Source: Deltaproteobacteria bacterium (GTDB lineage Bacteria > Myxococcota_A > UBA9160 > UBA4427). From it: a stretch of DNA of 64,000 nt. Under the pieces are notes generated by a model. It was given only the letters and a program-made list of their open reading frames with translations, was not told where the DNA came from and made no database searches. The stretch is taken from the NCBI GenBank assembly GCA_016713665.1, contig JADJOR010000024.1, positions 342,862 to 406,861 of the forward strand, written 5' to 3'. The position numbers and the translations under genes are program-made. Every line of letters starts with the position of its first letter. Within the stretch, counting starts at the first letter, position 1. Shown here one piece after another: positions 36,673 to 54,579 of this stretch.

Positions 36673-37113
36673 TCATTCGTCCGGCTTCCCCTCTCCGATC
36701 CGGAACGCGATGACAACGAAGTCACCCGGTGGCAGGTCGACGAGTTCGGCCCGTACCCGCGCTCCGACCTCGACATGCTGCGGATCGACGTCGAGGAGCC
36801 GGCCCACGAGACGGAGGCCGGGCTGCTCGTCCAGCTCGACCATTCCCACAATATAGGGGACCGCGTCCAGATAGCCGGGGACGGCCGCGTGGCGCACGAC
36901 GATGAAGCTGCGCAGGCTCCCTGTCCCCGCGATGGGATCGAAGCGGGTTTCGGCCGCGCAGGCACGGCAGCGCTCGAGGGGTGGGTGGTGCCACAGGCCA
37001 CAGTCGCTGCACCGGCACAACTTGATGCGTCCGGACGCCGTCGCGCTCCAGAAGCCCTCGCTGTCGGGGTCCGGCCGAGGCTGAGGCGGGAGCTGGGCCG
37101 CGTCGACGCTCAT
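36673..37113 (-). CDS. DUF35 OB-fold/zinc-ribbon protein (thiolase partner)
   Basis: Zn-ribbon CSDCGLWHHPPLERCRAC. ATGA overlap with the upstream thiolase-like gene. Confidence 0.85.
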   Translation of the reverse strand: MSVDAAQLPPQPRPDPDSEGFWSATASGRIKLCRCSDCGLWHHPPLERCRACAAETRFDPIAGTGSLRSFIVVRHAAVPGYLDAVPYIVGMVELDEQPGLRLVGRLLDVDPQHVEVGARVRAELVDLPPGDFVVIAFRIGEGKPDE

Positions 37114-38255
37114 TCGGCAACCCCCAGCAGCATCGCACCGCCGTATGGCCCTGCACCGGCAGTCACGAGGGCGACCTCGGCCCCTTCGACCTGCCGCTCG
37201 CCGGCGTCACCACGGAGCTGGAGAACTGCCTCGAAGGTGTGATTGAGTCCGTGGATGTAACCCTCCGAAAGGAGGCCGCCGTGTGGATTGACTACAACGT
37301 CGCCGCCGTACGTACCCCGACCGCTGCGGAGGAAGTCGCCGACCTCACCCCGTTCGCAGAAGCCGAACTCCTCGAGCGTGACCATGACGGTGTAGGTGAA
37401 GCAGTCGTACATGCACGCCACGTCGACATCCGCGGGCCGCAAGCCGCTCCGGTCCCAGAGCGCCGGCGCGACCTCTTTCGAGTACATCGTCGTCAGGTCA
37501 GGCCATCGCTCCCAGGAGCCGCCCGCCCCCGTGAACTCCGCGTGTGCGTGAAGGCCGACCGGCGGTCGGCGCAGATCCGCGGCCCGCTCCGCGGTCGCGA
37601 GGACGAGCGCGACGGCGCCGTCGATCTCGAGCGCGCAGTCGTAGAGCCTGAGCGGCTCGTTGATCCATCGGGCCGCGAGGTAGTCGTCGATCGTAATCGG
37701 GTCGCGCTGAACGGCGTGTTCATTCGCCACAGCGTGCCGCCGTTGGGTGACCGCGATCGCACCGAGATCCTCGCAGGTGCTCCCGTAGACCTGTTGGTGC
37801 TCCCGCGCCCACATCGCCATCCATTGCGGCGGCGTCATGTAGCCCTGGGGCGCGGTGAACTGAAGCGCCCCACCGACCTCGTGCACGCCGTCCGCGCGAC
37901 CGAAGCGACGACCACTTCGTCCATTGAGCGAGCGGTAGACGATTGCCGTGTCGCACAGTCCGCACTCGATCGCCATCGCAGCGTTTGTAACGACACTCGA
38001 GGCGTAGTTGCCACCGCCCATCAGGTCAATGTTCCAACGCAGCCCGGGCGACCCGATCGCGTCGGCGACCGCCATGGGACTCGCCGAGTCCGCCGCCTGA
38101 TAGGTAGCGGCGCCGTCGACCTGAGTGGCATCGAGTCCGGCGTCCGCGAGCGCCTCACGTGCCGCTTCGGCGGCCATCGCAAGAGTCGTGCGACCCGACC
38201 GCCGGCCGTAAGCGGTTCGACCGATGCCGACAATGACAGGCGTTCGTTGCTTCAT
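37110..38255 (-). CDS. thiolase-fold protein, SCP-x / lipid-transfer (Ltp) type
   Basis: 381 aa. N-terminal VIVGIGRTAYGRR and C-terminal NPHGGLLSEGYIHGLNH. Paired with DUF35. Confidence 0.9.
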   Translation of the reverse strand: MKQRTPVIVGIGRTAYGRRSGRTTLAMAAEAAREALADAGLDATQVDGAATYQAADSASPMAVADAIGSPGLRWNIDLMGGGNYASSVVTNAAMAIECGLCDTAIVYRSLNGRSGRRFGRADGVHEVGGALQFTAPQGYMTPPQWMAMWAREHQQVYGSTCEDLGAIAVTQRRHAVANEHAVQRDPITIDDYLAARWINEPLRLYDCALEIDGAVALVLATAERAADLRRPPVGLHAHAEFTGAGGSWERWPDLTTMYSKEVAPALWDRSGLRPADVDVACMYDCFTYTVMVTLEEFGFCERGEVGDFLRSGRGTYGGDVVVNPHGGLLSEGYIHGLNHTFEAVLQLRGDAGERQVEGAEVALVTAGAGPYGGAMLLGVAE

Positions 38256-38306
38256 CCCTGAGCCCTCCTCACCTCACTCGCGCTCCGGCAGAAGACCGGA
38301 GTGGAT

Positions 38307-39104
38307 CTAGCGCGCTCCATCGAAGTCACCTGCCAGTGCCCTCGTGGCGTAGGCCGAAGCGTCCAAGACGACATTGGCTACTCCCTTTGTTGCCTCGAGG
38401 ATCCGGCTCCGAGCGTCCTCGTTCTCGCCGTCGACGGTGACATCCGCACCGATCGGGCGGGCGCCAGCTCCTCGGCGTCCGCCTCGAGATCCGTCACGAC
38501 GACCATACCGACCACACCGAACGACATGCGATCACACTCGCGAGCCCACGCTGACCCGGACCGCGAATCACGACAATCTGACCGAGTCGAGTCTCGGGAA
38601 TCCCGACCGCCCAACGGAAGCCGGCCCCGAGCGGATTGAACATGACTGCGCCTTCGGGTGGAATCGTCGGGTCGATACGGTGCACGACGGACGTCGGCGC
38701 CAAGTACATCATGTCCGAATACACCTCCCAAAGCCCCGGCGGTTCATCCAGCGCAACGTAGGAATAGATTCGCCTGCTCCGGCACAGGTGGTAGTCGCCT
38801 CGCAGGCAAGGGTGCGCAGAATCGGCACGCGAACATCGTCTCGACGGCCACTCGATCTTGGAGTTCGACGCCCCAGCGCTCGGCAGCGCGATCCCCGATG
38901 CGTTCGATCGAGCGGCTCATGGCCGGGGACTACGGGGAATGGAAGCGGGAGGCCGCCCTGGCACTGCTCGAAATCGCTTCGGCAGATGCCGCACGCCTCC
39001 ACGCGAAGCAATGCGTCGTCGGCGCCGATCTCCGCGACCCGAAGGTCCGGCTGCTCGAGCCTGCAGGGCCCGGTCTGGTCGATCGCTCGCGTCTTCTCTC
39101 TCAC
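38307..39104 (-). pseudogene. zinc-dependent (MDR) alcohol dehydrogenase, multiply frameshifted and shortened
   Basis: Segments in at least four frames: (V)REKTRAIDQTGPCRLEQPDLRVAEIGADDALLRVEACGICRSDFEQCQGGLPLPFPVVPGHEPL; SIERIGDRAAERWGVELQDRVAVETMFACRFCA; PCLRGDYHLCRSRRIYSYVALDEPPGLW..YSDMMYLAPTSVVHRIDPTIPPEGAVMFNPLGAGFRWAV...VIRGPGQRGL; IGADVTVDGENEDARSRILEATKGVANVVLDASA. Confidence 0.65.
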
Positions 39105-39227
39105 CGAAGCTCTCCCGCCAGTCGGGAGCCGCCAGTGCCTGGGCACGCATCGACCGGGTGGACAACGTTTCCCATCCGATTTATCGTATCGAATCGTAGC
39201 CAGCGGCGACCAGCGTCGGGAGACCTC

Positions 39228-40193
39228 ATGAACCCAACGAACCGGGATGGGATCTTCGATGGGCTCTGCGTGATGGACGTAGATACACACATCTCCGAAC
39301 CGCACGATCTCTGGACGGAGAACGCGCCGGTCTCCGTTCGTGATCGACTCCCTCGGGTCAAGGAGATCGATAGAGCGAAGCACTGGATAGTCGACGGAGA
39401 CATCAATCTCGGTACCGCGACACCCGTAAGTGTGGTCCATCATGACGGAAACAAGTCGAACGGCATCGAGTTCTTCAACTGGTCCATGGAGGAGGTCCAT
39501 GCCGCCTCGTATGACATGGAGGCTCGCGTCCGGCTGATGGACGACCTGGGTCTGCGCGGGATCGTGATGTTCAGCGATCCCCACTCGGTCGGTCTGCCGG
39601 ATCTTTGCGATCCCGCGTGGCACTCGTTCTCGGACGTGTGCGGTTAACTCGAGATGCCCATGAACTTCCACATCGGCGAGAGCCAGACATCGTTCAACAT
39701 GTTCGGTCGAGCCGCCTGGCAATCGACGGACCTCGCTGAAAAGCTGGGGCTCGGCTCGGCCGCGCTGTTTTTCGAGAATGCACGCGTCCTCGGAAACCTT
39801 CTCGACAGCGAGGTGCTCGAACTTTTCTCGAAGGTAAAGTCGTCTCGGTCGAGAGCAGCATCGGATGGATTCCCTTCCTGCTCGAGTCGCTCGACTATGA
39901 GATCCATGAGACAGGACAATGCCAACGGCAAGCTCAAGATGCTTCCGTCCACGCACTTTCTGCGCCAAGTCTATGGCTGTTTCCGGTTCGAGAAGACCGC
40001 TCCGAGCAAGCTGCTCGAGGACATCGGCGTGAAGAACGTGCTGTTCGAGACCGATCTTTCCCATCCGACGTGTCTCTATCCCGACCGTCGAGAACACGTC
40101 GAGAAAGTCATGGAATATCTTTCGCCGCATGTTCGCAGGTCCGTTCTCCAGGACAACGCAGCGAAGCTGTATAGAATCTTCACCTCCGGCTGA
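39228..40193 (+). pseudogene. amidohydrolase (PF04909-like), decayed paralogue of 52329..53540
   Basis: Aligned by eye to the intact copy. It has the same DVDTHISEPHDLW start. About 70 residues are missing between LMDDLGL and RGIVMFSDP. There is an in-frame TAA at 39645-39647 where the paralogue has Glu (VCG*LEMP vs VCGELEMP). A compensated out-of-frame stretch follows: FPKVKVVSVESSIGWIPFLLESLDYE is only readable in another frame. Confidence 0.75.
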
Positions 40194-40237
40194 AGAATTC
40201 GGCGGTACCACCGTCGCGTTCACCACGGGAACGAGTC

Positions 40238-40849
40238 ATGGAGCAAGACGTCGCATTCGTCGGAAAACGCGTCCGCCAGTGGCGCGAAGAGATGGGACTG
40301 TCGCTCCAGGAGCTCGCGGCGCGCTGCGACGTAGCGGCAAGCACGATCCAGAAGGTCGAGACTGGCCAGATGGTCCCGTCGATCGCGATCGCGCTCAAGA
40401 TCGCACGTGGACTCGACCGCCGTCCCGCCGAGCTTCTGAGTTCGGAGCCTGAGGAAGCCGAAGTCGTACTCATGCGTGCGAAGGAGCACGTTGTCATCGA
40501 CTCCCACAAGAAGCTGCGCGTCGAACGACTGTCGGGCGACCTCTTCGACCCAGCGATCGAAATGTGGCGCGTCACCGTTCACCCCAGCTTCTCGAGCGGC
40601 AGTCGTGTCCATGAATACGATGGTGAAGAAGTCATCGTTTTAGAGGCCGGTGAGCTGCACTTCGAGGTCGGGGGCGAGGAGTATGTGCTCGGTGAGGGGG
40701 ACACGTTGCACTTCAAAGCGGGAATTCCACACCGCTGGTGGAATTCCAGCCGACGGATCGCCCGCTTCTTGATTGCAGGGAACTTCCCGCGCGGACTCCG
40801 GCGGAAGCTTCATATGCAGGTTCAGAAGGATCGAGGCGGGGCGAGCTGA
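40238..40849 (+). CDS. XRE-family HTH + C-terminal cupin transcriptional regulator
   Basis: HTH segment MGLSLQELAARCDVAASTIQKVETGQMVPSIAIALKIARGL and cupin segment GEEVIVLEAGELHFEVGGEEYVLGEGDTLHFKAGIPHRW. Confidence 0.85.
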   Translation: MEQDVAFVGKRVRQWREEMGLSLQELAARCDVAASTIQKVETGQMVPSIAIALKIARGLDRRPAELLSSEPEEAEVVLMRAKEHVVIDSHKKLRVERLSGDLFDPAIEMWRVTVHPSFSSGSRVHEYDGEEVIVLEAGELHFEVGGEEYVLGEGDTLHFKAGIPHRWWNSSRRIARFLIAGNFPRGLRRKLHMQVQKDRGGAS

Positions 40850-40880
40850 TTTGCTCCTGCGTTAACTTCGAGGGAATGGC

Positions 40881-41327
40881 ATGAGTGGGACCAAGCAGCT
40901 GCAATCGAGCTTCGACCGGGCGGTTGCGGACGGATTCGTGGACGCGAGCCGGAAGCTCGAAGGCCTACCCGGCTATTTGGGGGTCGTGTTCGTCGACTTC
41001 CAACCGGGACGGCTTCGCGCAGAGATGGAGGTTCGCCCGGAACTCCTGACGCCCTTCGGAAACATGCACGGTGGCGTACTCGCAGCACTCTGCGATCACG
41101 TACTCGGTTGCGTCTGCTATCCGCACATGACCCGGGGCCAGTGGGCCGCCACGACCGAATTCAAGCTGAACTATCTGGCACCAGTCAGCAAAGGCCAGGT
41201 CGTCGTGGAGGCCGAGATCATCGCGATGACGCGTGCCACAGCGGTCGTGCGGATCGAAGCCCGAAACGGCGACCGCCTCGCGTGCATTGCGCAGGGCACC
41301 GTGCTGATCCGGGACCCGAAGGAGTAG
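40881..41327 (+). CDS. PaaI/hotdog-fold thioesterase
   Basis: GNMHGGVLAALCDHVLG motif; 148 aa. Confidence 0.85.
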   Translation: MSGTKQLQSSFDRAVADGFVDASRKLEGLPGYLGVVFVDFQPGRLRAEMEVRPELLTPFGNMHGGVLAALCDHVLGCVCYPHMTRGQWAATTEFKLNYLAPVSKGQVVVEAEIIAMTRATAVVRIEARNGDRLACIAQGTVLIRDPKE

Positions 41328-41333
41328 GAGAAG

Positions 41334-42596
41334 ATGAGCACTGCCCAATCCCTGGACCAGGTCGAGCTGATCGACGCGGTGCACTACGCGGAGCACGGCT
41401 ATCCGCACGAGGCGTTCCGACTGCTCCGACGAGAAGCCCCGGTCTACTACTTCGATCGGTTGTCGCTTCGCCCCTTCTGGGCGATCACGCGCCACAGCGA
41501 CATCGTCGAGATCTCGCGACGCCCGGACCTGTACCTGAACGCGCCGCGCCTGGTCGTCGGCGCGGATGCGCTCACTGGCGAGTCAGGTGCGCTGCCGGTC
41601 CGGATGCTGCTCAACATCGATCCGCCTGATCACAGCGCGTATCGAGCGCTGGTGAACAAGCGATTCACCCCTCGCGCACTCCGGGACATCGCGCGCCGGA
41701 TCGACGCAATCGCGTCCCGCGCGCTCGACGACATGCTCGCATGCGGCGAGGAATCCGAGGTCGACTTCGTCCGCGAGTTCTCTGCGAAGATCCCGATTTG
41801 GGTGATCGCGGAGATGCTTGGGGTTCCGGAGCAGGACTGGGAGCTGCTCTTCGACTGGACCAATCGCGTCCTCGGGGCGGCGGATCCCGAATACCGGGAA
41901 GAAGGCAAGTCGCCGCAAGAGACATTGCAGACCGCCCGACTGGCCCTCTTCTCCTACTTTCAGGACCTGACCGAGGAGCGGCGAAGTCGCCCCAAGGACG
42001 ATCTGGTCAGCGTCTTGACGCACTCGCAGATCCGCGGGGAGGCACTGCCCGTCTTCGAGTTGATGTCGTACTATTTTCTGATCGTCGTCGCGGGAAACGA
42101 GACGACGCGAAACGCCGCGAGCGGCGGCCTACTGGCCCTGATCGAGAACCCGGACCAGCTCGAGCTCGCGCGGAGAAGACCCGATCTCAACCGATCGCTC
42201 GTCGAGGAGGTTCTTCGCTGGACGTCGCCCGTGATCCATTTCTGCCGAACGCCGGTTCGAGACGTCACGATTCACGGGCAGACGATTCGAGCAGGAGAGA
42301 CGCTGACTCTCTTCTACCCCTCGGCCAATCGCGACGAGTTCGTCTTCGATGACGCCGACCGATTCAAGATCGACCGGCAACCGAATCGGCACATCGCGTT
42401 CGGAATCGGAGAGCACGTCTGCCTGGGCGCCCACGTGGCGCGCTTCGAGTTGCAGGTCATCTTTCGACACCTGCTCGCTCGGCTCGTCGACGTGGAGCTC
42501 GCGGGGCCGGTCGAGCGGCTTCGCTCGAGCATCGTCGGCGGAATCAAGCACATGCCGATACGATACCGCCTGCTCCCTTCCGCGGATGCAGCCTGA
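41334..42596 (+). CDS. cytochrome P450
   Basis: FGIGEHVCLGAHVA heme loop, ExxR (VEEVLRW) and AGNETT I-helix. Confidence 0.9.
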   Translation: MSTAQSLDQVELIDAVHYAEHGYPHEAFRLLRREAPVYYFDRLSLRPFWAITRHSDIVEISRRPDLYLNAPRLVVGADALTGESGALPVRMLLNIDPPDHSAYRALVNKRFTPRALRDIARRIDAIASRALDDMLACGEESEVDFVREFSAKIPIWVIAEMLGVPEQDWELLFDWTNRVLGAADPEYREEGKSPQETLQTARLALFSYFQDLTEERRSRPKDDLVSVLTHSQIRGEALPVFELMSYYFLIVVAGNETTRNAASGGLLALIENPDQLELARRRPDLNRSLVEEVLRWTSPVIHFCRTPVRDVTIHGQTIRAGETLTLFYPSANRDEFVFDDADRFKIDRQPNRHIAFGIGEHVCLGAHVARFELQVIFRHLLARLVDVELAGPVERLRSSIVGGIKHMPIRYRLLPSADAA

Positions 42597-42614
42597 GGGA
42601 GCTTCACGAGAACG

Positions 42615-43370
42615 ATGGCGGCAAGAGAGAGACACGAGATCGATCGACAGATCCTCGAACGAATCGAGCGGTTTCGTCGATCCGACGACGACGTCCCGGA
42701 TTCGTGGCGGGCCAGGCGCGAGGTCGCGAGCGCCGTTCGCGCCCTCCTCGACGTCCTGTCGACGACCGATGCAGCGGCTGACGTCATGCGGAGCAGCGCA
42801 AAGTCGATTCGCGCCCTCGCCGAGCACTTCGCCGCACACCCCGCGGTGATCGAACCGCGGGGCATCGCAGAGATGGCCTTCGCCGGGATGGAGGACTTCC
42901 ACGACCGGAGCCCGCTCGTCGGTCGCTCCAACCCCCTCGCCCCACCGCTGGCCCTCTTTCCCGATCCCGACAAGGGCATCATCGAAGGAACGACCATCTT
43001 CGGGAATGCATACGAGGGCGCTCCCGGGTGCGTACACGGCGGATTCATTGCGGCTGCGTTCGACGAGCTTCTCGGCATGGCGTGCATCTTCTCGGGCTCG
43101 CCAGGAATGACCGGCACCCTTGAGGTAACCTATCGGACTCCGACCCCGACCCGAACGCCACTCCGATTCGAGGGACGTTTCGAAGGGCGTGAGGGGAGAC
43201 GGATCCAGACTCGTGGAGAGATGTGGGCCGGCGAGCGGCTGTGCGCCGAGGCATCCGGGCTCTTCATCTCCATCGATCGCTCGAAATTCGAACAGCTGTC
43301 GAGAATCCGCCGGGAGCGCTCCGGTGCGGACGCGACGGACACGCCTCACAAGAATGATGCCGATGGGTGA
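42615..43370 (+). CDS. hotdog-fold (PaaI-like) thioesterase domain protein
   Basis: 251 aa; GCVHGGFIAAAFDELLGMA in the C-terminal half. Confidence 0.7.
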   Translation: MAARERHEIDRQILERIERFRRSDDDVPDSWRARREVASAVRALLDVLSTTDAAADVMRSSAKSIRALAEHFAAHPAVIEPRGIAEMAFAGMEDFHDRSPLVGRSNPLAPPLALFPDPDKGIIEGTTIFGNAYEGAPGCVHGGFIAAAFDELLGMACIFSGSPGMTGTLEVTYRTPTPTRTPLRFEGRFEGREGRRIQTRGEMWAGERLCAEASGLFISIDRSKFEQLSRIRRERSGADATDTPHKNDADG

Positions 43371-43467: not shown

Positions 43468-44512
43468 TCACGCAGCCTCGCTCCATGCGTATCGATGATG
43501 AAGCCCTGGTATTCGCGGCGATCGGATGACCTTTGCCGTGGGCGAGGCCCGATTTTCGGCGGCCCGAGGCCGCGGCGCGTCCCGAAGCCGAGTATCGATA
43601 CGATCCTCGTTGTAGTACGCAGCGTATTCTCGGAGCAGGCGACGCAAATGGAGTTCGTCGAATACAACGACATGATCGAGCAATTCGCGCCGAACAGAGC
43701 CCACCCAGCGTTCAGCGAGCCCGTTCTGCCATAGGCTGCCCAGGGAAGTCGGCTCGGGCTCGATCCCGAGAGCTTCAATCATCTCGAGGACTTTGCCCGA
43801 CAAGATCGCGTCATAGTCATCAATCAAGATCTCGATGGGCGTCTCACCAGGGAACGCCTCGCGAAGCTGCTGGATCACCCACGGCACCGTCGGATGCTCG
43901 GTGAAGTTGAAATGCAAAATCTCGCGTCCGTCGTGGGTGATCACGAACTAGACGAAGAGCATCTTGAAGCGGATCGTAGGAACGACCAAGAAGTCCATGG
44001 CCGAGATGACGTCGAGATGGTTTCGAAGGAAGGTGGTCCATCGCTGCCGCTGGTCATCGCTTCCATTTCTTCTGGGGAGGTAGCGGGACACGGTCGCGAG
44101 GCTGACGGTGAATCCCAGCTTCTCGAGTTCTGCCTGGATTCGCCGCGCACGCCACGGGTTCTCGCTCGCGAGGCAATGAATAAGATCCAGAAGCTCTGGC
44201 GAAATGGGAGGCCGCCAGGGCCCTCTCTTCGAGATCGACCACCAGTAGCATCGAAAGCCCTCTCGATGCCATCGGACCACGGTCTCAGGTCGGACAATGA
44301 CGAGAGAAGATCTCCACCGGGGCCAGACTCGGAGAAGAGCAATCCAGAAGGTGCGATCCATCGGGGAAAGGTGAGGGCGCGGATGCTTGTGGGCGTAGAC
44401 TGCGAGCTGTTGACGAAGCGCAAGCTCGACGATTGCTTGCTCGCGCCGACTGCGGAACAGGGCTGGAAGTGGCGACGAGGATCGCCAAATAGCGGAAGAA
44501 CGCTTGAATCAC
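43468..44512 (-). mobile_element. rve-domain transposase pseudogene (one frameshift and one in-frame TAG)
   Basis: GTG 44512 gives (M)IQAFFRYLAILVAT. After a frameshift near 44460 it reads ALFRSRREQAIVELALRQQLAVYAHKHPRPHLSPMDRTFWIALLRVWPRWRSSLVIVRPETVVRWHREGFRCYWW.... A TAG follows at 43948-43950, then FVITHDGREILHFNFTEHPT...WQNGLAERWVGSVRRELLDHV. Same family as 35555..36599 but clearly divergent, and in inverted orientation. Confidence 0.75.
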
Positions 44513-44671
44513 GTCGCGATTCTGCGTGAACGCGCTCGTGTCGTCCAGACTGAATCTCGCGAAGCATTCGCGGTAGCATGATCGCTCGGGTTCGCGGCTC
44601 AGCGCTTACGACTCAGCGAGGATCTCGGCTGCGGACGGATTTTGAGAACCGACAGCCGGTGTGATGATGAG

Positions 44672-46308: not shown

Positions 46309-46576
46309 GGACGAATCCCCCGCCTGTACGGTCCCGGTCGTTTCGACCTCACCGCCATTCGAATTGTGCGCGGGCACCTCGAGGAGATCGCGCCGGCCTG
46401 ATTATCCTATTTGGATTGGCCTCTTGACTAAAATCATAGAGGATATACGATCCGAAACAACTAGGTACGAACCGCAACGGCCGCCGCCTCCGGACTTCCG
46501 ATGGTCTGAAGCTTAATTCTGGGGCGTTGCATGCATTGACCGCTCGGCCCGGTCGAAAACTCGGCGGACGCCATTG

Positions 46577-47740
46577 ATGACGAGCCAGCTTTACGATCCC
46601 TATGACCACAACATCCACACGGATCCCTTTCCGATCTATCGAGAGCTGAGAGATCGCTACCCGCTTTATCACAATGAGGACAAAAAGTTTTGGGCGCTAA
46701 CGCGCTTCGACGACGTGCTCAATGCGGCGAACGATTTTGAGACGTTCTCCTCGGAGGGGGGCATCACAATCGAGGGCGGAGGAAACCAGTTTCCGATGAT
46801 GATCCTGATGGATCCACCGCGCCACGACCGCCTTCGCAGCATCGTCAGTCGGGCCTTCACTTCTCGGCGCGTGGCAGAGCTTGAGCCGAGAATCAGGAAG
46901 TTAGCGGACGGGCTGCTGGACGAGTTCATCTCTAATGGGGGGGGCGACTTGGTCGACGCGCTGGCGTCGCCGATTCCTTCGCTCGTGATCGCAGACATGC
47001 TGGGCGTTCCCGGGGAGGATAGGGCCAAGTTCCGCGAGTGGTCGGATGCCGCAATTCGACAGGATCCGAACGTCCCGGACACTCAGAGAGCGGGGATGGT
47101 GGCCGCACGTGCACTTTACGAATACTTCGGCCATGTGGTCGAAGAGCGACGAAAAAGGCCGGCCGACGATCTTGTTACGGCCTTGATCCACGCCGAAGTC
47201 GACGGTGAGAAGCTGTCGCAGCAGGAGCTGCTCGGTTTCTGCTTCCTGCTCCTCGTTGCGGGCAATGAAACAACCACGAATCTCATTTCAAACGGTGCGA
47301 TCGCCTTCGCCGAGAATCCCGATCAGCGGAGGGCTGTTCGAGAGGACCTTTCGCTGCTGCCCAAGGCGGTCGAAGAAGTGCTGCGATTCGATGGTCCGGT
47401 TCAGGGATTGGCCCGGACGCTGACCCGCGAGGTGGAATTCTACGGACAGAAGGTCGCAGTTGGTGAGAAGATTCTACTGCTTTACGGCGCTGCGAATCGG
47501 GATGAGCGGCGATTCGATGAGCCGGACAAATTTGACATCAGACGGAAACAACGGAGCCATCTCGCGTTTGGACAGGGTCGTCACTTTTGTCTGGGCGCCG
47601 CATTGGCTCGACTCGAAGGGCAATTGGCTTTCGAGGCGCTCTTGACGCGAATCCCGGACTACGAGCTGGTGTCCGGGGGCCGTGAGTACCTCCACTCTGG
47701 TCCGATACGCGGGTTGGACAAGCTCTTGATCGAATTCTAG
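46577..47740 (+). CDS. cytochrome P450
   Basis: FGQGRHFCLGAALA, VEEVLRF and AGNETT motifs. ATG 46577 is used; the track's start at 46574 is TTG. Confidence 0.9.
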   Translation: MTSQLYDPYDHNIHTDPFPIYRELRDRYPLYHNEDKKFWALTRFDDVLNAANDFETFSSEGGITIEGGGNQFPMMILMDPPRHDRLRSIVSRAFTSRRVAELEPRIRKLADGLLDEFISNGGGDLVDALASPIPSLVIADMLGVPGEDRAKFREWSDAAIRQDPNVPDTQRAGMVAARALYEYFGHVVEERRKRPADDLVTALIHAEVDGEKLSQQELLGFCFLLLVAGNETTTNLISNGAIAFAENPDQRRAVREDLSLLPKAVEEVLRFDGPVQGLARTLTREVEFYGQKVAVGEKILLLYGAANRDERRFDEPDKFDIRRKQRSHLAFGQGRHFCLGAALARLEGQLAFEALLTRIPDYELVSGGREYLHSGPIRGLDKLLIEF

Positions 47741-47865
47741 GGATCTAATCCACGGGGACCGCGATTCTCGTCCCCCAGGCCAACCACCGACCCTACTCGC
47801 GCCGCGGCAACCGGTCCCCCTAAACACCTGCCGCACCCCACGGCGCATTTCCCTGCAGCGGTCCG

Positions 47866-48369
47866 CAATCCGCGGGCGCCGGGACCGGACGTTGGATCGC
47901 GATCGCGTGCACGACCACAGTGGAATAGGAGGCGTTATGCACAGAAGCTGGCAATACGGCGTGCGCCCATAATGCGCGTTTTGCCACATTTGCCGCCCGC
48001 TGTAAGCACCAAGAGCCCTCGAGGAGAATCTCTCGAATTGGACCCGAGCCTTCGACGCCTACGTGCAAATGAACCGGCTGCAACGCGCCGGCATCCCGGC
48101 AGGCGTCTGTCAGACGGCAGAGGAGCGCGCTGAGCGGGACCCGCAACTCAAGCATCTCGATTGGCTCACCGTCCTGCGCCACAGCGAAATCGGCGAATGG
48201 CGAGTCAAGGACTTCCCCGTTCGCCTGTCGGAGGCCGCCCACGTGCCGGGGAGGACCGATCGAACGCGCCTCCCGCTGCTACGGCTAGGACAACCGCTTC
48301 GCTTTCAGGACTTTTCTCGGAATGAGCAACCAGGAGATCGTCACCCTGGAGAAGCGACACGTCTTCTGA
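47866..48369 (+). pseudogene. family III CoA-transferase (CaiB/BaiF-like), 5'-truncated C-terminal relic
   Basis: Reads GRWIAIACTTTVE-TAG(47926-47928)-EALCTEAGN..ARFATFAARCKHQEP. After a frame switch near 48010-48018 it reads LEENLSNWTRAFDAYVQMNRLQRAGIPAGVCQTAEERAERDPQLKHLDWLTVLRHSEIGEWRVKDFPVRLSEAA. After another shift it reads RCYG-TAG(48286-48288)-DNRFAFRTFLGMSNQEIVTLEKRHVF. Confidence 0.55.
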
Positions 48370-48497
48370 ACGGGCGGAGTTGATTTCCGATCGAATTCAA
48401 GCGAATATGATCGGATACGAATTGGTCTCGCCACCGTGCCTCGCCAGAATTACAACAGCTCGGCATGGGAGCAGAGGCCTAAACGGGAGCCCTAACC

Positions 48498-49649
48498 ATG
48501 AATGCCGATCTCGCGAAACGACCGATCATCGACATCGACACCCATTGGACTGAGCCCCGGGATCTATGGAGCAAACGGGCTCCGGCAAGACTCAAAGACC
48601 GAGTGCCCAAGATCGCGATCGGCCCAGGGGGCAACGAACACTGGTTCGTTGAGGGTGACCTCGCACTGGGTGCTCCGGGCTATTCCGTCATCAAGCGAGA
48701 TGGCTCCAAGGTGCGCGGAACCTTCTCCCTCCCCCGCTTCGAGGATCAACACGAAGCCGGCTACACCGCCGAGGCCCGCCTGAAGATCATGGACGCCACA
48801 GGGGTCTACGCCGAGATCTGTTACCCGAATACGCTTGGCTTCGCAGGCGGCGGGGTCATGGCGGTGAAAGACGAAGAACTTCGGAATTTCTGCATCAGCG
48901 CGTACAACGATGGCTGCGGCGAAGTACAGGAGCAAGGAAAGGGGCGCCTCTTTCCCCAGGCCATTCTTCCGTTCTGGAACCTCGATGCCACGCTCAAGGA
49001 GCTCAAGCGCTGTCGCGAAGAACTCGGACTGATCGGGTTCACGATGACTGACAGCCCCCAGGAATGGAATCTCCCTCCCCTGCAGAACCCCTACTGGGAC
49101 CCGTTGTGGAATATGGCCCAGGACTATGGAATGCCGATCAACTTCCACATCGGCTCGGGCGCGACGGGGCCGTTGGCCTGGCCCGAACTCGAGCCAGGGC
49201 GGATGCTCGCGGTCTCTTCAACCTGCATTTTCTTGAATAACATCCGTACTATGGTCAATCTCATTTTCAGCGGACTGCTCGACCGTTTCCCGAATCTCAA
49301 CTTCGTCTCCGTCGAGAGCGGATTGGGCTGGATCCCGATCGTGCTCGAGTCCTGCAACTACCAGATGCGCGAGAACATGGCGAAACCCATGAAGCTCACC
49401 CCGAGCGAGTATTTTCAGCGCCAGATCTATTCGTCCTACTGGTTCGAAAAGGACGATATCTGCAAGTCGATCCACTTGATCGGCGAGGATCATGTCATGT
49501 TCGAGACCGACTTCCCTCATCCGACCTGTATCTACCCGAACGTGCAAGAGACGATTGAAGACAGCATCGGATCGATGGGCGAAAGCGTCCAGCGAAAGGT
49601 TCTTTGGGAGAACGCGTCGCGGGTCTACGGAATCCCGCTGCCAAGCTGA
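48498..49649 (+). CDS. amidohydrolase (PF04909 / ACMSD-LigW-like metal-dependent hydrolase/decarboxylase family)
   Basis: 383 aa. IDIDTHWTEP N-terminal metal motif, INFHIGSG, and FETDFPHPTC near the C-terminus. Confidence 0.9.
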   Translation: MNADLAKRPIIDIDTHWTEPRDLWSKRAPARLKDRVPKIAIGPGGNEHWFVEGDLALGAPGYSVIKRDGSKVRGTFSLPRFEDQHEAGYTAEARLKIMDATGVYAEICYPNTLGFAGGGVMAVKDEELRNFCISAYNDGCGEVQEQGKGRLFPQAILPFWNLDATLKELKRCREELGLIGFTMTDSPQEWNLPPLQNPYWDPLWNMAQDYGMPINFHIGSGATGPLAWPELEPGRMLAVSSTCIFLNNIRTMVNLIFSGLLDRFPNLNFVSVESGLGWIPIVLESCNYQMRENMAKPMKLTPSEYFQRQIYSSYWFEKDDICKSIHLIGEDHVMFETDFPHPTCIYPNVQETIEDSIGSMGESVQRKVLWENASRVYGIPLPS

Positions 49650-49838
49650 CGAGAATCGCGGCTTGCGTCGAGCTGGAATCGGATGGTTCGCACGCCGTGT
49701 AGTGCCACAATCGTCAAGCGGAACCTTCCGTCTAGGCAAACTGGCAGTATCGCTCGAATCAGCTCAGGGGCTAGACAAGTGATCTGACCAGCAGCATGCG
49801 GGATAGTGTGTGGGAAGGGATTGGCTGAGAGGTGCTGG

Positions 49839-51224
49839 ATGACGGCCCATGAAAAAATATTGGCACCGGTGGGCGGGGTCGCAGGTGCTCGTTGCCCCGG
49901 CGAGTCTGTTCAGGACGTTTATCGACGCGATCGCGGAGAACTGCCGCAGTTTCTAACGGAAACAGCGTCAGCGCCTATCGAGGCACGCCCGCTCACGACG
50001 GACGTCTACACCTCCCGAGATTTTCACGCACTTGAACTCGAACGGATGTGGCCGCGCGTCTGGCAGATGGCAGGTCGTGAGGAGGACATCCCGGAGGTCG
50101 GAGACCACTTCGTCTACGAGATCGGCGCGACCTCACTCATCATCGTCCGATCCGGAGCGGCCGAGATTCGCGCCCTTTACAACTCCTGCCTGCACCGTGG
50201 CACCGCATTGCGCGAATGCGGCGGGAACGTGAGCCAGTTCCGTTGTCCCTTCCACGCCTTTACATGGGATCTGCACGGCGAGATCAAACGAATTCCGAGC
50301 GAGTGGGACTTTCAGGATATTCGGGGTCGTGTCGCCAAGTTGCCGGAAGCCCGTCTGGACACATGGGGGGGCTTCATCTTCGTAAATCTGGACGAGGAAG
50401 CCGAATCCCTCGAAAGCTACCTTGAGTCCGTACCCAAGGACTTCGAGCGCTGGCCCCTTGATCAACGATTCACCGCGTCACATGTAGCCAAGGAACTCGA
50501 CTGCAACTGGAAGGTCGCACAAGAGGCCTTTATCGAAGTCTTCCACGTAATTGGGATCCATCCGCAGTCCCTTCCCATGTTCGGTGATGCCAACGCGCAA
50601 TACGACGTCTGGCCGGAGCGTCGACATACGAGCCGCATGATCAATCTCTCGGCCGTCGCAAGTCCCCATCTCAGAGGGTATAGCGAGCAGAGAATTCTGG
50701 ATGCCTCAGCCGAATTTGGCCTCTGCGACAGGGGCGCGACCGTGCCGGCGGGTAAGAGGGCACGAGATGTCGTCGTCGAGGGAATGCGGGAGCGTTTCAG
50801 GCGCGACCTTGGGGTCGATACGAGCGGTCTATGCGATACGGAAGTGCTGGATGTCATCCAGTACAACGTTTTTCCCAATCTGATGCTCTTCGGGGGGCTC
50901 GGCTCGCCGCTCGTCTACCGAGTTCGGCCCCAGGGAGACGATCCTGGTCGATGCCTCTTCGAAGTCTGGCTGCTTCTGCCCTTCCCGAAAGATGCACCGA
51001 GACCGCCGGCAGCCCCCCTTCGCATTCTGACTGCGGAGGATCGTTGGTCCAGCGTAGAGGAACTCAGCTATTTCGGAGCCATTCTCGACCAGGACTTCGA
51101 CATGATGCCGCAAGTACAGCGCGGCCTACGTGCATCGAAAACGCGGCAGGTCTTGTTGTCGACGTACCAAGAAAGCCGAATCCGACACATGAGGCAGACG
51201 CTCGACGAATACGTTAGGCGCTGA
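49839..51224 (+). CDS. Rieske [2Fe-2S] non-heme-iron oxygenase, alpha subunit
   Basis: From ORF 49806..51224, trimmed to ATG 49839. Rieske motif CLHRG-x16-CPFH and mononuclear-iron motif EAFIEVFHVIGIH (Hx4H). No beta subunit or reductase is adjacent. Confidence 0.85.
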   Translation: MTAHEKILAPVGGVAGARCPGESVQDVYRRDRGELPQFLTETASAPIEARPLTTDVYTSRDFHALELERMWPRVWQMAGREEDIPEVGDHFVYEIGATSLIIVRSGAAEIRALYNSCLHRGTALRECGGNVSQFRCPFHAFTWDLHGEIKRIPSEWDFQDIRGRVAKLPEARLDTWGGFIFVNLDEEAESLESYLESVPKDFERWPLDQRFTASHVAKELDCNWKVAQEAFIEVFHVIGIHPQSLPMFGDANAQYDVWPERRHTSRMINLSAVASPHLRGYSEQRILDASAEFGLCDRGATVPAGKRARDVVVEGMRERFRRDLGVDTSGLCDTEVLDVIQYNVFPNLMLFGGLGSPLVYRVRPQGDDPGRCLFEVWLLLPFPKDAPRPPAAPLRILTAEDRWSSVEELSYFGAILDQDFDMMPQVQRGLRASKTRQVLLSTYQESRIRHMRQTLDEYVRR

Positions 51225-51271
51225 TCTCAGCCCGGCCGAGCGGCCTCCTTCTGCGTTGAGTGCGATAGCAT

Positions 51272-52030
51272 TCAATCGCCCTCACCGCCCGGGAGCCCTG
51301 CCAGAAGTCCGCCGTCCGCTATGAACTCGGACCCTGTCGAGTAGGAACTGTCGTCGGAGGCCAGGAAGAGAGCCAGCTTCGCGATCTCTTCGGGTTGAGC
51401 GATCCGCCGCAAGGGGACCCGGCGAAAAATGTCGAGCGCCCCTGGATCGATGTCATCCGCCTTCACCATGGGCGTATCGACGCCACCGGGATGGATCGAG
51501 TTGACGCGGACGCCGTAGGGTCCGAACTCGATCGCCGCCGTCTTTGTGAGTCCCCGGACCGCGAACTTGCTCGAGACGTATCCCGACCCACCGGCCATTC
51601 CGACGAGTCCATCGACCGAGGAGATGTTCACAATCGACCCATTCCCCCGGTTGATCATTTCCCGGCCGACCTCCCGGAGCCCTAGGAAAACACCGACTTG
51701 ATTCACCGAGATGACCCGTTGGTAGTCGTCAAGGGTCGTCTCCGTGAGCCGCGAGAACCGCACGATGCCTGCGTTGTTGACCAGGACATCGATCTTCCCG
51801 TGTTGCCCGACCGTCTCTGAAACGACACGGCGCCAGTCGTCCTCCGAGGTGACGTCGAGATGTCGATACGAAGCCGTGTCTCCGATCTGATCAGCGACCT
51901 TACATCCGGTCTCGTCGAGCACGTCGCAGAGAACGACCTGTGCGCCCTCTGCCGCAAAGAGACGGGCCTCCGCCTCCCCCTGCCCGCGCGCCGCCCCTGT
52001 GATCAGAGCGACCCGACCTTTTAGTCTCAT
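51272..52030 (-). CDS. short-chain dehydrogenase/reductase (SDR)
   Basis: From ORF 51272..52054, trimmed to ATG 52030 after AGGAGG. ITGAARGQG and YVSSK motifs. Confidence 0.9.
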   Translation of the reverse strand: MRLKGRVALITGAARGQGEAEARLFAAEGAQVVLCDVLDETGCKVADQIGDTASYRHLDVTSEDDWRRVVSETVGQHGKIDVLVNNAGIVRFSRLTETTLDDYQRVISVNQVGVFLGLREVGREMINRGNGSIVNISSVDGLVGMAGGSGYVSSKFAVRGLTKTAAIEFGPYGVRVNSIHPGGVDTPMVKADDIDPGALDIFRRVPLRRIAQPEEIAKLALFLASDDSSYSTGSEFIADGGLLAGLPGGEGD

Positions 52031-52328
52031 TCGAATTCCTCCTGCGCTGCGCACGCGATGCTTGCGTTTCCGACTTGATACATAATAATATAATCGTACT
52101 CAGCCCGGACCGGCGACTGGAACCGAACGGCCTGCGCCGGCTTCTGTCGATTTCTTCCCATGCAGCGTTGGCTGAGAGATGGGCGCCCATGGACCTTCTC
52201 TCCATGGTCCGACGAGATTTGTCGAAATTTTCTCGGCGAGCGCTGGCTGGGAATGCTGCGTTCGTATTGACGAGGCCGTATTCATCGGACGGAGTCCCGC
52301 TGGCACGGAAATGAAAAAGGAGATGACC

Positions 52329-53540
52329 ATGCACGCCAAGAACACAACTGAAAGCGGCAACGGGGGGCGGAACATCCTCAACGGCCTACACGTCATCGAT
52401 TCCGATACGCATCTCTCAGAGCCTCACGATCTTTGGACGAGAAACGCATCAAGTGCGCTTCGCGATCGCGTTCCACAGGTCAAGCAGATCGATGGGGTCA
52501 ACCACTGGATCGTGGACGGTGACGTCGACATGGGACCCGCAACCCCCGTGAGCGTAGTAAGGCGCGACGGAAAGAAGTCCGATGGCCTCGAGTTCTTCGG
52601 CTGGAAGCTGGAGGACGTACACGAAGCCTCCTATGACATGAAGGCGCGCGTTCGCTTAATGGATGAGCTCGGTATTCATGCGCAGATCATCTATCCCAAT
52701 GCCGCCGGTTTTGGAAACCAGAACTTCCTCAAAGTGAAGGACGAAAAGCTGCGCCTTGCGTGCGCCCAGATCTACAACGACTCCGTTGCGGAGCTCCAAG
52801 AGCAGTCGGATAATCGTCTCTTCCCAATGGCGCTCGTGCCCTGGTGGCATATCGATTCCTGTGCAAAGGAAATCGAGCGGGCACATGCGCTCGGACTCCG
52901 GGGCGTGGTGATGTGCAGCGATCCCGATAGTGGCGGGCTCCCCGATCTCGGCGATCCCGCCTGGGACCCTTTCTGGGATGTCTGCGGAGAACTGGAGATG
53001 CCCGTCAACTTCCATATTGGCGCGAGTCAGACGTCATTCAACATGTTCGGGACCGCTTCGTGGAACAGCATGGACATGAGTGAGCGGCTCGCACTCGGGT
53101 CCGCGACCTTGTTTTTCGACAATGCACGGGTGCTCGGCAACCTCCTTTATAGCGGCATCCTCGAACGCTTCCCGAAGGTCAAGGTCGTCTCCGTCGAGAG
53201 CGGTATTGGCTGGATACCCTTTCTCCTCGAAACACTTGACTACGAGGCGCAGGAGACCGGCTCATACAAGAACGGGAAGCTCAAGATGCTGCCCTCGGAA
53301 TACTTCCGCCGCCAGGTCTATGGTTGTTTTTGGTTCGAGACGAACGCGCCCCAGAAGTTGATCCAGGATGTTGGCGTAAACAACGTCCTCTTCGAGACGG
53401 ATTTTCCGCATCCCACCTGCCTGTATCCGAACAACCGGAATCATCTACAGAAGGCCATGGGGCATCTGGACGAAAACATCTGCCGCCGGGTCCTTCAGGA
53501 CAACGCGGCAGAACTCTATCGTATTCCACTCCCCGGCTGA
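52329..53540 (+). CDS. amidohydrolase (PF04909-like), intact paralogue of 39228..40193
   Basis: From ORF 52179..53540. AAGGAG at 52317-52322 favours ATG 52329 (MHAKNTT); ATG 52311 or 52323 are possible. Motifs VIDSDTHLSEPHDLW, VNFHIGAS and FETDFPHPTC. Confidence 0.9.
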   Translation: MHAKNTTESGNGGRNILNGLHVIDSDTHLSEPHDLWTRNASSALRDRVPQVKQIDGVNHWIVDGDVDMGPATPVSVVRRDGKKSDGLEFFGWKLEDVHEASYDMKARVRLMDELGIHAQIIYPNAAGFGNQNFLKVKDEKLRLACAQIYNDSVAELQEQSDNRLFPMALVPWWHIDSCAKEIERAHALGLRGVVMCSDPDSGGLPDLGDPAWDPFWDVCGELEMPVNFHIGASQTSFNMFGTASWNSMDMSERLALGSATLFFDNARVLGNLLYSGILERFPKVKVVSVESGIGWIPFLLETLDYEAQETGSYKNGKLKMLPSEYFRRQVYGCFWFETNAPQKLIQDVGVNNVLFETDFPHPTCLYPNNRNHLQKAMGHLDENICRRVLQDNAAELYRIPLPG

Positions 53541-53575
53541 GTCATTCGATTACAGGAGCCTACGAATGGACACGG

Positions 53576-53775
53576 ATCTTATGTTGTCGGCAATCGAATC
53601 GCGGCTCGTGTGATGAGATTGGCCGGTCTCTCCAGGGGATTGCGCCGCGTGCCGACGTCGCACCCAGCACGATCCAGAGAGTCCTAACAGAACAGCTCTG
53701 GCCTGCTCTAGAAATCCGACCACACTCAGACCGTGAGAATTCGGCCGAGTTCAATTCAGATCAGAGAGAATTGCC
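53576..53775 (+). pseudogene. decayed tandem duplicate of the 5' end (RBS + HTH region) of the regulator gene at 53968
   Basis: Nucleotide alignment by eye: CAGGAG..ATGGAC..GATCT..A(A/T)TCGCGG...GACGTC(G/T)CACC(C/G)AGCACGATCCAGA(G/A)(A/G)GTC..AACAGAACAG is shared with 53957-54110. The reading frame is broken after 15 codons (TGATGA). Confidence 0.55.
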
Positions 53776-53967
53776 ATCGAGAGCTCAAAATTTCGGGAGT
53801 GGAAGTTAGCCTTTGCATTGCATCCGGTGGAGACCAGCACCCAGGTCACAGACGTCGTTGGGAACTTGACAAACACAGTCTTCGCCGACTACTACACGTC
53901 AGGACAACGCCGCGGAAAACAATAAGCTCCCAATTAAAGAGTGATCCACGGAATCGCAGGAGTCAAC

Positions 53968-54579
53968 ATGGACGAAGATCTCAAGCTCATTGCGCGAAGG
54001 ATTCGCGGTTGGCGCGAGGAGCTCGGGCTATCCCTCCACGAGCTGGCTCGACGTGCTGACGTCTCACCGAGCACGATCCAGAAGGTCGAAACAGAACAGA
54101 TGGTCCCCTCGATTTCGATCGTCATGAAGATCGCGAGAGGACTCGATCGGCGTCCAACCGAACTCATCAGCGATGAGCCCGAACATCTCGATGTCGTTCT
54201 TATTCGCGCCAAGGAACACGCAACGAGCGGCTCAATCGCGAAAATGAAAGCCGAGCGATTATCGGGAGACCTCTTCGATCCGTCGATCGAAATGTGGCGA
54301 GTCTTTGTAAGTCCCGGATTCTCGAGCGGCTCAGACCCTCACGCTTACGAGGGAGAGGAGCTCATTCTGTGTGAGGAAGGCTGTGTGACCTTCGCATTCG
54401 AGGAATGCGAGTATCAAATGCAAGCCGGCGATTCACTTCACTTCAAGGCCGATCTGCCTCATCGATGGTGGAACGACGGTGACACGGTGGCCCGAATCAT
54501 CATCGCCGGCACGTTCCCGAAAGCCCTGCGACGCAAGCTTCACGAGCAAATGCAGAACCCACGCAAACCACGACGCTAG
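53968..54579 (+). CDS. XRE-family HTH + cupin transcriptional regulator (paralogue of 40238..40849)
   Basis: From ORF 53941..54579, trimmed to ATG 53968 after GCAGGAG. Motifs LGLSLHELARRADVSPSTIQKVETEQMVPSISIVMKIARGL and SLHFKADLPHRWWN. Confidence 0.85.
   Translation: MDEDLKLIARRIRGWREELGLSLHELARRADVSPSTIQKVETEQMVPSISIVMKIARGLDRRPTELISDEPEHLDVVLIRAKEHATSGSIAKMKAERLSGDLFDPSIEMWRVFVSPGFSSGSDPHAYEGEELILCEEGCVTFAFEECEYQMQAGDSLHFKADLPHRWWNDGDTVARIIIAGTFPKALRRKLHEQMQNPRKPRR

Follow-up and report, generated by a model that had tools for sequence, protein, structure and literature searches.

Two neighbouring catabolic gene modules of a 'Deltaproteobacteria bacterium' genome are probably assemblies of cassettes shuffled by insertion sequences

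We analysed a 64,000-nt stretch of DNA (the window; contig JADJOR010000024.1, positions 342,862 to 406,861) from the metagenome-assembled genome (MAG) GCA_016713665.1, deposited as 'Deltaproteobacteria bacterium'. Proteins encoded in the window correspond to records of this MAG with accessions from MBK7952302 to MBK7952348, on a contig of 412,509 bp. The window carries two adjacent catabolic gene modules, module 1 (M1, 36673–43370) and module 2 (M2, 44672–54579). An earlier note on this DNA had described them as paralogous copies of one pathway, in which a decaying higher-GC M1 was being replaced by an intact, laterally acquired M2 of lower GC content. Pfam scans confirmed the shared gene families, coordinates and strands given there for both modules, as well as the genes that M2 has in addition (a second amidohydrolase, a Rieske oxygenase and a short-chain dehydrogenase/reductase, SDR). 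The relationships among these genes lead us to another interpretation, which we consider probable: M1 and M2 are assemblies of cassettes belonging to a modular family of acyl-CoA oxidation clusters, shuffled by insertion sequences (ISs) within a variable region of lower GC content that has a tRNA-Ser gene at its start. Contigs and genome loci used for comparison are designated here by L numbers, proteins by P numbers.

RESULTS

Only one cassette is closely related between the modules

Each module begins with a minus-strand pair of genes for a DUF35 protein and a thiolase-fold protein, and each contains a cytochrome P450 gene and an amidohydrolase-fold gene followed by a gene for an XRE helix-turn-helix (HTH)/cupin regulator. 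In a BLASTP comparison of M1 with M2 the regulators were 61% identical, the thiolase-fold proteins 35%, the DUF35 proteins 36% and the P450s 37%. The M1 amidohydrolase-fold gene is a pseudogene (psi-amido, 39228–40193, plus strand) with multiple lesions; its raw fragments were 58–60% identical to the product of the intact M2 counterpart, amidoB (52329–53540, plus strand), and with the frames rejoined the amino acid identity rose to 67.9%. The earlier estimate by eye, that the amidohydrolase and regulator pairs were about two-thirds identical and the thiolase/DUF35 pairs much more distant, was therefore fair (67.9% and 60–61% vs 35% and 36%). DNA sequence comparison of M1 with M2 showed similarity in two stretches only, 39337–40120 vs 52459–53467 and 40270–40579 vs 54000–54309, at 70–73% identity. 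The cassette of the amidohydrolase-fold and XRE/cupin genes (∼1.9 kb) is thus the only closely related part of M1 and M2, while the thiolase, DUF35 and P450 pairs (35–37%) appear from their sequences to be family-mates only. The two homologous amidohydrolase-fold genes have equal GC content (0.572 in psi-amido, 0.571 in amidoB).

In a bootstrapped neighbour-joining (NJ) tree of the oxygenase-like amidohydrolase-fold proteins (200 replicates, 43 sequences), a clade of amidoB, the L102 protein, P0002, P0003 and the M1 protein had 100% bootstrap support. Within it the groups {M1, P0002, P0003} and {amidoB, L102} were also supported at 100%, and direct sisterhood of the M1 and M2 proteins at 0%. 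The NJ tree of the XRE regulators had an M1 clade at 100%, a joint clade at 88% and, again, 0% for direct M1–M2 sisterhood. When the 120 proteins closest to amidoB were compared, amidoB, P0002, P0003 and the reconstructed M1 protein stood out as a clade. The description of the modules as paralogous stands for the oxygenase–regulator cassette, whose members are truly related, and fails for the thiolase, DUF35 and P450 genes. For the thiolases this was seen in bit scores: the M1 and M2 proteins scored 246 and 238 against Ltp2 of Thermomonospora curvata (TcLtp2) and only 174 against each other, so that each is closer to TcLtp2 than to its presumed paralogue.

Relatives of the M1 and M2 genes were found elsewhere at 71–88% identity. 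The M1 and M2 thiolase-fold proteins have relatives in other genomes at 74% (L023) and 71% (L027), respectively. The short contig L016, whose amidohydrolase gene encodes P0003, contains an intact M1-type block of alcohol dehydrogenase, amidohydrolase and XRE genes; its amidohydrolase–XRE spacer is 45 bp, as in M1, and its XRE protein is 82% identical (tblastn) to that of M1. L102 has an M2-type block with a full-length CoA-transferase gene. Since the M1 and M2 cassettes are sister lineages with closer relatives elsewhere, they came together by acquisition or rearrangement and not by duplication in situ. The neighbourhood of P0009 (L013) was uninformative, as this gene sits among unrelated defence genes.

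Gene order is strain specific

The modules had also been described as lying side by side. This order turned out to be a property of the strain, and the modules are not coherent units. A 131.6-kb contig from another sample (L098) matches the window at 98–99% identity in the blocks common to both and has them in a different order: a phage-type integrase gene, the M2-type DUF35–thiolase pair, IS66 and M1, with the M2 thiolase pair thus located on the other side of M1. The last M1 gene is followed in L098 by a 103-aa gene and an acyl-CoA dehydrogenase gene, both missing from the window, where the homology at the right end of M1 stops at 43402. The amidoB–XRE cassette is located at the start of the L098 contig, together with an IS and TetR and RND efflux genes, at least 40 kb from M1. 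This difference in arrangement implies that the blocks move independently of one another.

A further cluster, encoding an Amidohydro_2 protein (394 aa), a P450 (403 aa) and an acyl-CoA dehydrogenase (396 aa), was observed in L098 (1–4341) and L103 (14502–18344). The lineage therefore holds several such cassettes, beyond the two of the window.

Two genes of module 1 are old pseudogenes

Two of the eight M1 genes are decaying, namely the amidohydrolase-fold gene and the gene of a Zn-dependent alcohol dehydrogenase (Zn-ADH; 38310–39098, minus strand, delimited by tblastn with the intact L016 enzyme). In psi-amido, comparison with L098 revealed a 221-bp deletion at 39549/39550, which leaves about 69 amidoB codons without a counterpart; a TAA stop codon is present at 39645–39647, the stretch at about 39836–39925 is out of frame and mutation has turned the metal motif into DLSHPT. 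Of the Zn-ADH gene there remain pieces in three frames (39098–38784, 38811–38509 and 38453–38310), with the C-terminal ∼70 aa lost; about 20 aa (204–223) had no tblastn match in the main frames. The same pattern of pieces was observed in L003 and L098.

These lesions are not artefacts of one assembly. Six short-read contigs obtained from other samples and with other assemblers (L001–L006) showed 0 indel differences across 38256–40240, at 99.3–99.7% identity. The sister lineage represented by L098 and L099 (97.7% identical across the lesion stretch) shares the TAA stop and the frameshift after 'FSKVK', retains the 221 bp and 2 bp lost in the lineage of the window and has an extra frameshift of its own near codon 137. 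Given lesions common to both lineages and lesions specific to each, inactivation must predate the lineage split and decay is ongoing in both. The designation of the two genes as pseudogenes is thus confirmed.

The other six genes of M1 are intact and look constrained: between the two lineages they have 18 synonymous and 11 nonsynonymous differences, with a pooled ratio of nonsynonymous to synonymous substitution rates (dN/dS) of about 0.2. The first is the gene for a stand-alone DUF35 protein with zinc ribbon and OB fold (36673–37113, minus strand; Pfam zf-ChsH2 and OB_ChsH2_C), which is 67% identical to the L023 homologue and has a dN/dS of 0.34 vs L098. It is followed by the gene of the thiolase-fold protein, Ltp2-like and probably an aldolase (37110–38255, minus strand; NCBIfam PRK07855, PDB 6ok1). 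On the plus strand are the XRE-HTH/cupin regulator gene (40238–40849, identified by Pfam; dN/dS 0.31), the gene for a hotdog-fold (4HBT/PaaI-like) thioesterase (40881–41327; Pfam, NCBIfam TIGR00369), the gene of a CYP125-like P450 (41334–42596; Pfam and PDB matches) and that of a 4HBT-like hotdog protein (42615–43370; Pfam), the last M1 gene in this strain. What had been said of decay in the higher-GC copy therefore applies to two dead genes and not to the rest of the module.

Module 2 has scars of its own

M2 had been regarded as intact; we found the remains of two genes in it. The P450 gene (46574–47740, plus strand; Pfam, PDB match) is separated from the next intact gene, amidoA, by 757 bp, and this gap contains the remnant of a family III CoA-transferase gene (47740–48366, plus strand; weak Pfam match to CoA_transf_3). 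In a tblastn search with the 841-aa enzyme of L102 only aa 633–841 could be aligned, at 44% identity, so the CoA-transferase content of the gap is limited to the last ∼209 residues. In L102 the complete 841-aa gene is located upstream of the same amidoA–Rieske pair. As the stump starts at the last base of the P450 gene (47740), we place here the junction between a left block, consisting of the DUF35 gene (44672–45112, minus strand), the thiolase-fold gene (45145–46308, minus strand) and the P450 gene, and a right block. The M2 DUF35 protein (Pfam OB_ChsH2_C, with CxxC...CxxC readable in the translation) is stand-alone, like that of M1, and is 51% identical to its L027 homologue; the thiolase-fold protein is Ltp2-like (PRK07855, PDB 6ok1) with the motif YENF.

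The right block starts with amidoA (48498–49649, plus strand; Pfam Amidohydro_2), whose product is 44% identical to that of amidoB and 82% identical to its L102 orthologue. It is followed by genes for a Rieske oxygenase alpha subunit (49839–51224, plus strand; Pfam Rieske and Ring_hydroxyl_A) and an SDR (51272–52030, minus strand; Pfam, NCBIfam), by amidoB, identified by Pfam Amidohydro_2, PDB sequence and fold searches and the trees, and by an XRE-HTH/cupin regulator gene (53968–54579, plus strand, intact by Pfam). The gap of 427 bp between amidoB and this regulator gene contains the second scar, a 5′ stump of an older, dead XRE gene (53566–53716, plus strand; tblastn match 53612–53716, direct-repeat family D6). 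The stump is collinear with the XRE gene that directly follows amidoB in L102, and the homology between the window and L102 continues beyond the stop codon of amidoB as far as 53678. With its closest relatives the present regulator of M2 shares 71–74% identity. The amidoB protein and its orthologue in L102 are 88% identical, but the M2 XRE protein is only 71% identical to the L102 one, and so the regulator gene of M2 appears to have been replaced. M1 and M2 are both in the course of erosion, and a patchwork is the best description of the neighbourhood.

The modules lie in a variable region rich in mobile elements

The first 20 kb of the window have 66–74% GC (0.696 overall), and the sequence from a tRNA-Ser (GGA) gene (20099–20186, plus strand) to the end of the window has about 60%. 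The step coincides exactly with the tRNA gene, which forms the left edge of the mobile-element-rich region containing both modules. Genes for DNA methylases, a large serine recombinase (26713–28371, minus strand) and a ParB-methylase are located 3′ of it; a tRNA border, a composition shift and a recombinase, as looked for in a genomic island, are thus all present. A second copy of the tRNA-Ser 3′-end repeat (att) was absent from the window, and the low-GC region extends to the window end. M1 does have a higher GC content than M2 (0.639 vs 0.588), as had been stated, with the M1 DUF35 and thiolase genes (0.67–0.69) approaching the left flank.

Truncated transposase genes (rve_3, by Pfam) were found on the left flank of M1 (35889–36599, plus strand) and between M1 and M2 (43468–43944, minus strand). 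A composite transposon around M1 was considered and rejected: the two flanking remnants share 43% identity and both are truncated, so they are not copies of one IS. Directly upstream of the second remnant is an open reading frame (ORF) of 212 aa (43941–44579, minus strand) with no Pfam match, which gene callers annotate in metagenome contigs; this ORF may encode the N-terminal portion of the transposase in a shifted frame.

On the right, M2 ends at a site that is polymorphic for an IS insertion. The window has at this point a poly-C tract of ∼530 nt (54887–55417; GC skew −0.7). In L007 the flanks join directly, and L009 holds a 1.2-kb IS3-family element, the end of which matches the bases just after the tract. 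Most likely the tract arose as an artefact of assembly or polishing and takes the place of an IS copy. A glycine- or proline-rich gene, suggested by the local GC content of 0.78 at 54.5–56 kb, was rejected, since the poly-Pro and poly-Gly ORFs across the tract are spurious. Just beyond, Pfam gave no match for a 206-aa ORF (55435–56134). The sequence just upstream of TnpB_IS66 in L098 has 75% identity to this region, and L101 has IS66 and IS21 fragments at the corresponding position. The region is probably a further IS remnant, which separates M2 from the TetR/RND efflux genes.

Two side observations concern the left part of the region. The 90%-identity cluster of the large serine recombinase contained, in the protein collection, only the sequence from this MAG. 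A small ORF just past the tRNA-Ser gene (21037–21318, minus strand) has an N-terminus that by eye resembles a Phd/YefM-type antitoxin, possibly with a toxin fragment adjoining.

The amidohydrolase-fold proteins resemble dinuclear oxygenases

The amidohydrolase-fold proteins had been labelled as members of a decarboxylase/hydratase family, a label that is probably wrong. Both have the PF04909 TIM-barrel fold (Pfam Amidohydro_2, 2e-27 to 6e-29). Compared with the sequences in PDB, amidoB matched PtmU3 (7.7e-35) and DitZ (1.7e-32) far better than decarboxylases and hydrolases of the same fold (∼1e-9 to 1e-10). In a fold search with the predicted model of amidoB (pLDDT 82.7) the top hits were again DitZ (TM score 0.79) and PtmU3 (TM score 0.74), at 23–26% identity. 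Both DitZ (8uyr in PDB) and PtmU3 (6omp in PDB) are amidohydrolase-related dinuclear oxygenases (AROs) that hydroxylate diterpenoids (PMC13154177, PMC10811679); PtmU3 belongs to the platensimycin/platencin pathway. AROs are defined by an N-terminal D-x-H motif on the first beta strand and a C-terminal D-x-P-H-x-D/E motif; the characterised hydrolases and decarboxylases of the fold are without D-x-H (PMC13154177).

D-x-H was present as DTH at residue 14 of amidoA and residue 26 of amidoB, aligned with the motif of PtmU3 and DitZ, and in 117 of 120 homologues. The His of FHIG and the Glu of VESG also align with PtmU3 and DitZ. At the C-terminal motif, amidoA and amidoB both have DFPHPT, with Thr as the final residue in place of D/E, and D-[FY]-P-H-x-T occurs in 118 of the 120 closest amidoB homologues. 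The clade with this variant motif comprises more than 6,000 proteins at E ≤ 1e-20 and would be missed by a motif filter built on the published ARO definition. Judged by sequence and model, amidoA and amidoB resemble AROs and are best called ARO-like, not proven members.

Within 10 kb of the clade members at 80 genome loci, genes for enoyl-CoA hydratase (38/80), family III CoA-transferase (26/80) and SDR (26/80) were found, a gene content that would fit CoA-ester-bound substrates. A DUF35–thiolase pair is located directly beside the oxygenase-like gene in L027, L045, L046 and L084. The closest genome matches (L018–L097) were mostly MAGs of uncultured Myxococcota and Acidimicrobiia, several of them 'Candidatus Poriferisocius'; in the species-representative genome set the best locus was only 65% identical. 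A putative shared operator upstream of the oxygenase genes, TTTCCNATCSGA, spotted by eye, was dropped: it had 4 matches vs 2.9 expected, and 33 of 100 shuffles reached 4.

The pair of amidoA and the Rieske alpha subunit gene is conserved: it was found in the window (48498–51224), in L102 (4509–7113, 82–88% identity) and in L103 (7075–9721). Published AROs were found via small Rieske ferredoxins, and the pairing of amidoA with a full Rieske alpha subunit is therefore different. Matches of this subunit to PDB and NCBIfam were weak and unspecific, and genes for a Rieske beta subunit, ferredoxin and reductase were absent near 49839–51224.

The thiolase-fold proteins resemble an aldolase

Neither thiolase-fold protein has the hallmarks of the SCP-x-type thiolase suggested earlier: the loop at the nucleophile position has no Cys, and YDCF (M1) or YENF (M2) takes the place of HDCF (PMC12329534). 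The best match among solved structures was TcLtp2 (PDB 6ok1; 7e-74 for M1, 2e-71 for M2, 38–40% identity). Ltp2-type aldolases use the catalytic Tyr of the Y294DHF motif, with Tyr344 as acid (PMC12329534), and equivalents of both Tyr294 and Tyr344 are conserved here (YDCF and GYIHG in M1, YENF and AYIHG in M2). In both modules the stand-alone DUF35 gene is immediately downstream of the thiolase-fold gene, and Pfam detected no MaoC domain in M1 or M2. The two proteins resemble the steroid side-chain aldolase Ltp2 and probably catalyse retro-aldol cleavage rather than thiolysis.

Both P450s had CYP125MRCA, a reconstructed CYP125 ancestor, as the best structure match (4e-111 for M1, 2e-91 for M2). 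P450terp, CYP124 and CYP142 follow for the P450s of both modules, and for M1 P450terp, CYP125 and CYP124 come next.

DISCUSSION

A possible pathway

The comparisons suggest that the modules serve the oxidative degradation of an acid, probably a terpenoid- or steroid-like one, with each biochemical step predicted from homology; they fit the suggestion of the earlier note that a hydrophobic substrate undergoes side-chain and ring processing. The CYP125-like P450s would oxidise a terminal methyl group of the substrate to an acid, which may then be handled as a CoA thioester, as hinted at by the hotdog thioesterases that M1 encodes and the CoA-transferase that M2 has lost. The amidohydrolase-fold proteins could act as dinuclear-metal monooxygenases similar to DitZ and PtmU3. 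The Ltp2-like proteins, each with its stand-alone DUF35 partner, would cleave a C–C bond by retro-aldol reaction, not by thiolysis, and the Rieske oxygenase and SDR may modify a ring. The XRE/cupin proteins presumably sense a pathway metabolite.

A broader possibility, which we put forward tentatively and think doubtful at present, is that the D-x-P-H-x-T clade is an unrecognised branch of dinuclear-metal oxygenases acting on acyl-CoA. Together with DUF35 and an Ltp2-like aldolase it might constitute a 'hydroxylate, then retro-aldol' route controlled by XRE/cupin regulators in wastewater Myxococcota-like bacteria. Should this be true, such a route could cut C–C bonds beside carbons at which beta-oxidation is blocked, as in terpenoid and steroid skeletons.

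Alternative explanations

According to the earlier note, a resident higher-GC M1 was functionally replaced by a later, laterally acquired, more complete M2 of lower GC content, and M1 decays as redundant. The overall GC contents (0.639 vs 0.588) agree with this, as does the GC of the M1 DUF35 and thiolase genes (0.67–0.69), which nears that of the left flank; moreover, the sole dead M1 gene with a counterpart in M2 has an intact homologue there, the 68%-identical amidoB. Still, neither module reaches the 0.696 of the left 20 kb; M1 and M2 alike are located in the IS-rich region of ∼60% GC past the tRNA-Ser gene, and psi-amido and amidoB, the homologous genes, do not differ in GC (0.572 and 0.571). 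The supposed replacement is itself without a complete CoA-transferase gene and contains the stump of an XRE gene, M2 offers no counterpart of the dead ADH, and six M1 genes are intact and look constrained. In the sister strain, M1 has the same old lesions though the amidoB–XRE cassette is at least 40 kb off and the M2 thiolase pair is elsewhere. The order of acquisition is not readable from the data. We regard replacement of the module as unlikely; judging from the sequences, it is plausible solely for the one oxygenase gene.

A tandem duplication in situ, in which the copies of a single ancestral cluster diverged and one of them lost its function, would account for the adjacency of the modules and for their common layout, a minus-strand DUF35–thiolase pair and then plus-strand genes that include the P450 and the oxygenase–XRE cassette. 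It is very improbable given thiolase, DUF35 and P450 pairs at 35–37% identity, thiolases that each score higher against TcLtp2 than against the other copy, relatives of every gene elsewhere at 71–88%, 0% bootstrap for direct M1–M2 sisterhood and modules that are non-adjacent in the sister strain. Errors in the sequencing or assembly of this MAG, which does have the ∼530-nt poly-C artefact at 54887–55417, are an explanation of the M1 lesions to which we give next to no weight: six contigs from different samples and assemblers have no indel difference over 38256–40240 at 99.3–99.7% identity, and the stop codon and one of the frameshifts recur in a diverged lineage. Shuffling of cassettes by ISs within the variable region remains the interpretation that we favour.

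Several points weigh against our own reading, some concerning the history of the region and others the chemistry. The core GC content was judged from 20 kb of the window only, and the far end of the island was not found in the window. The trees are neighbour-joining trees on one alignment, not maximum likelihood ones, and the dN/dS estimate is based on 29 substitutions. The Thr at the last position of the metal motif means that dinuclear-metal oxygenase chemistry is not assured. The M2 thiolase-fold protein carries YENF in place of YDHF or YDCF, and a gene for a small Rieske ferredoxin or reductase is missing nearby. The link between the oxygenase-like gene and the DUF35–thiolase pair is a minority pattern (7–9 of the 80 loci).

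Significance

The turnover seen in M1 and M2 is an ordinary kind of genome dynamics. Its value is that of a well-documented case, in which a catabolic neighbourhood was rebuilt by ISs and the stepwise, dated decay of genes can be traced across strains in metagenomes. The case also illustrates how automatic labels mislead: what is called an 'amidohydrolase' is most likely an oxygenase, and the 'thiolase' most likely an aldolase. Of more interest is what emerged alongside, a large clade of oxygenase-like proteins that deviates in its metal motif, lies outside the published family definition and is occasionally paired with Ltp2-like proteins. Should oxygenase activity on CoA esters be demonstrated for its members, these clusters would suggest an uncharacterised degradation route for branched or alicyclic lipids. 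In the literature the combination of DUF35, amidohydrolase, thiolase and P450 was not found, and a broader search gave nothing specific.

Comparison with known systems

The amidoA and amidoB proteins share with DitZ and PtmU3 the PF04909 fold, D-x-H, D-x-P-H and the aligned FHIG His and VESG Glu. They differ in the Thr at the last motif position, in the low identity (23–26%) and in having no adjacent small Rieske ferredoxin; instead of the ferredoxin context of AROs, amidoA adjoins a full Rieske oxygenase alpha subunit.

The thiolase-fold proteins and their DUF35 partners are like the Ltp2–ChsH2 (TcLtp2) and CtSal–CtShy pairs in the thiolase fold with adjacent DUF35, the two Tyr residues and the lack of a nucleophilic Cys. 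Unlike in Ltp2–ChsH2, the DUF35 protein stands alone instead of forming the C-terminal domain in a MaoC hydratase, and there is no MaoC gene nearby. The M1 motif YDCF is that of TbSLP and is close to the YDCY of CtSal; M2 has YENF and TcLtp2 has YDHF.

With the actinobacterial cholesterol side-chain genes (CYP125/CYP142 and Ltp2) the modules have in common CYP125-like P450s alongside an Ltp2-like protein. The window contains, however, no KstR, KstD, KshA or Hsa genes, no ChsE-type dehydrogenase and no MaoC hydratase, and its host is a 'Deltaproteobacteria bacterium' MAG.

The dit cluster for abietane diterpenoids (resin acids) of Pseudomonas abietaniphila and Paraburkholderia xenovorans shares with the modules the Rieske alpha subunit, SDRs and P450s, and further, at the level of families, a sterol-carrier-like/thiolase protein, CoA activation and the ARO DitZ (PMC12628601, PMC10710418, PMC13154177). 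The modules differ from it in having no DitC extradiol dioxygenase, Rieske beta subunit or ferredoxin, and regulators of XRE/cupin rather than IclR/TetR type; the likeness is one of family content only.

Finally, the region as a whole can be compared with tRNA-associated, IS-rich catabolic islands. It differs in that no att repeat and no far end were seen in the window. It agrees with them in the tRNA-Ser border, the GC step, the recombinase and methylase genes, the IS remnants at every block junction and the strain-variable gene order.

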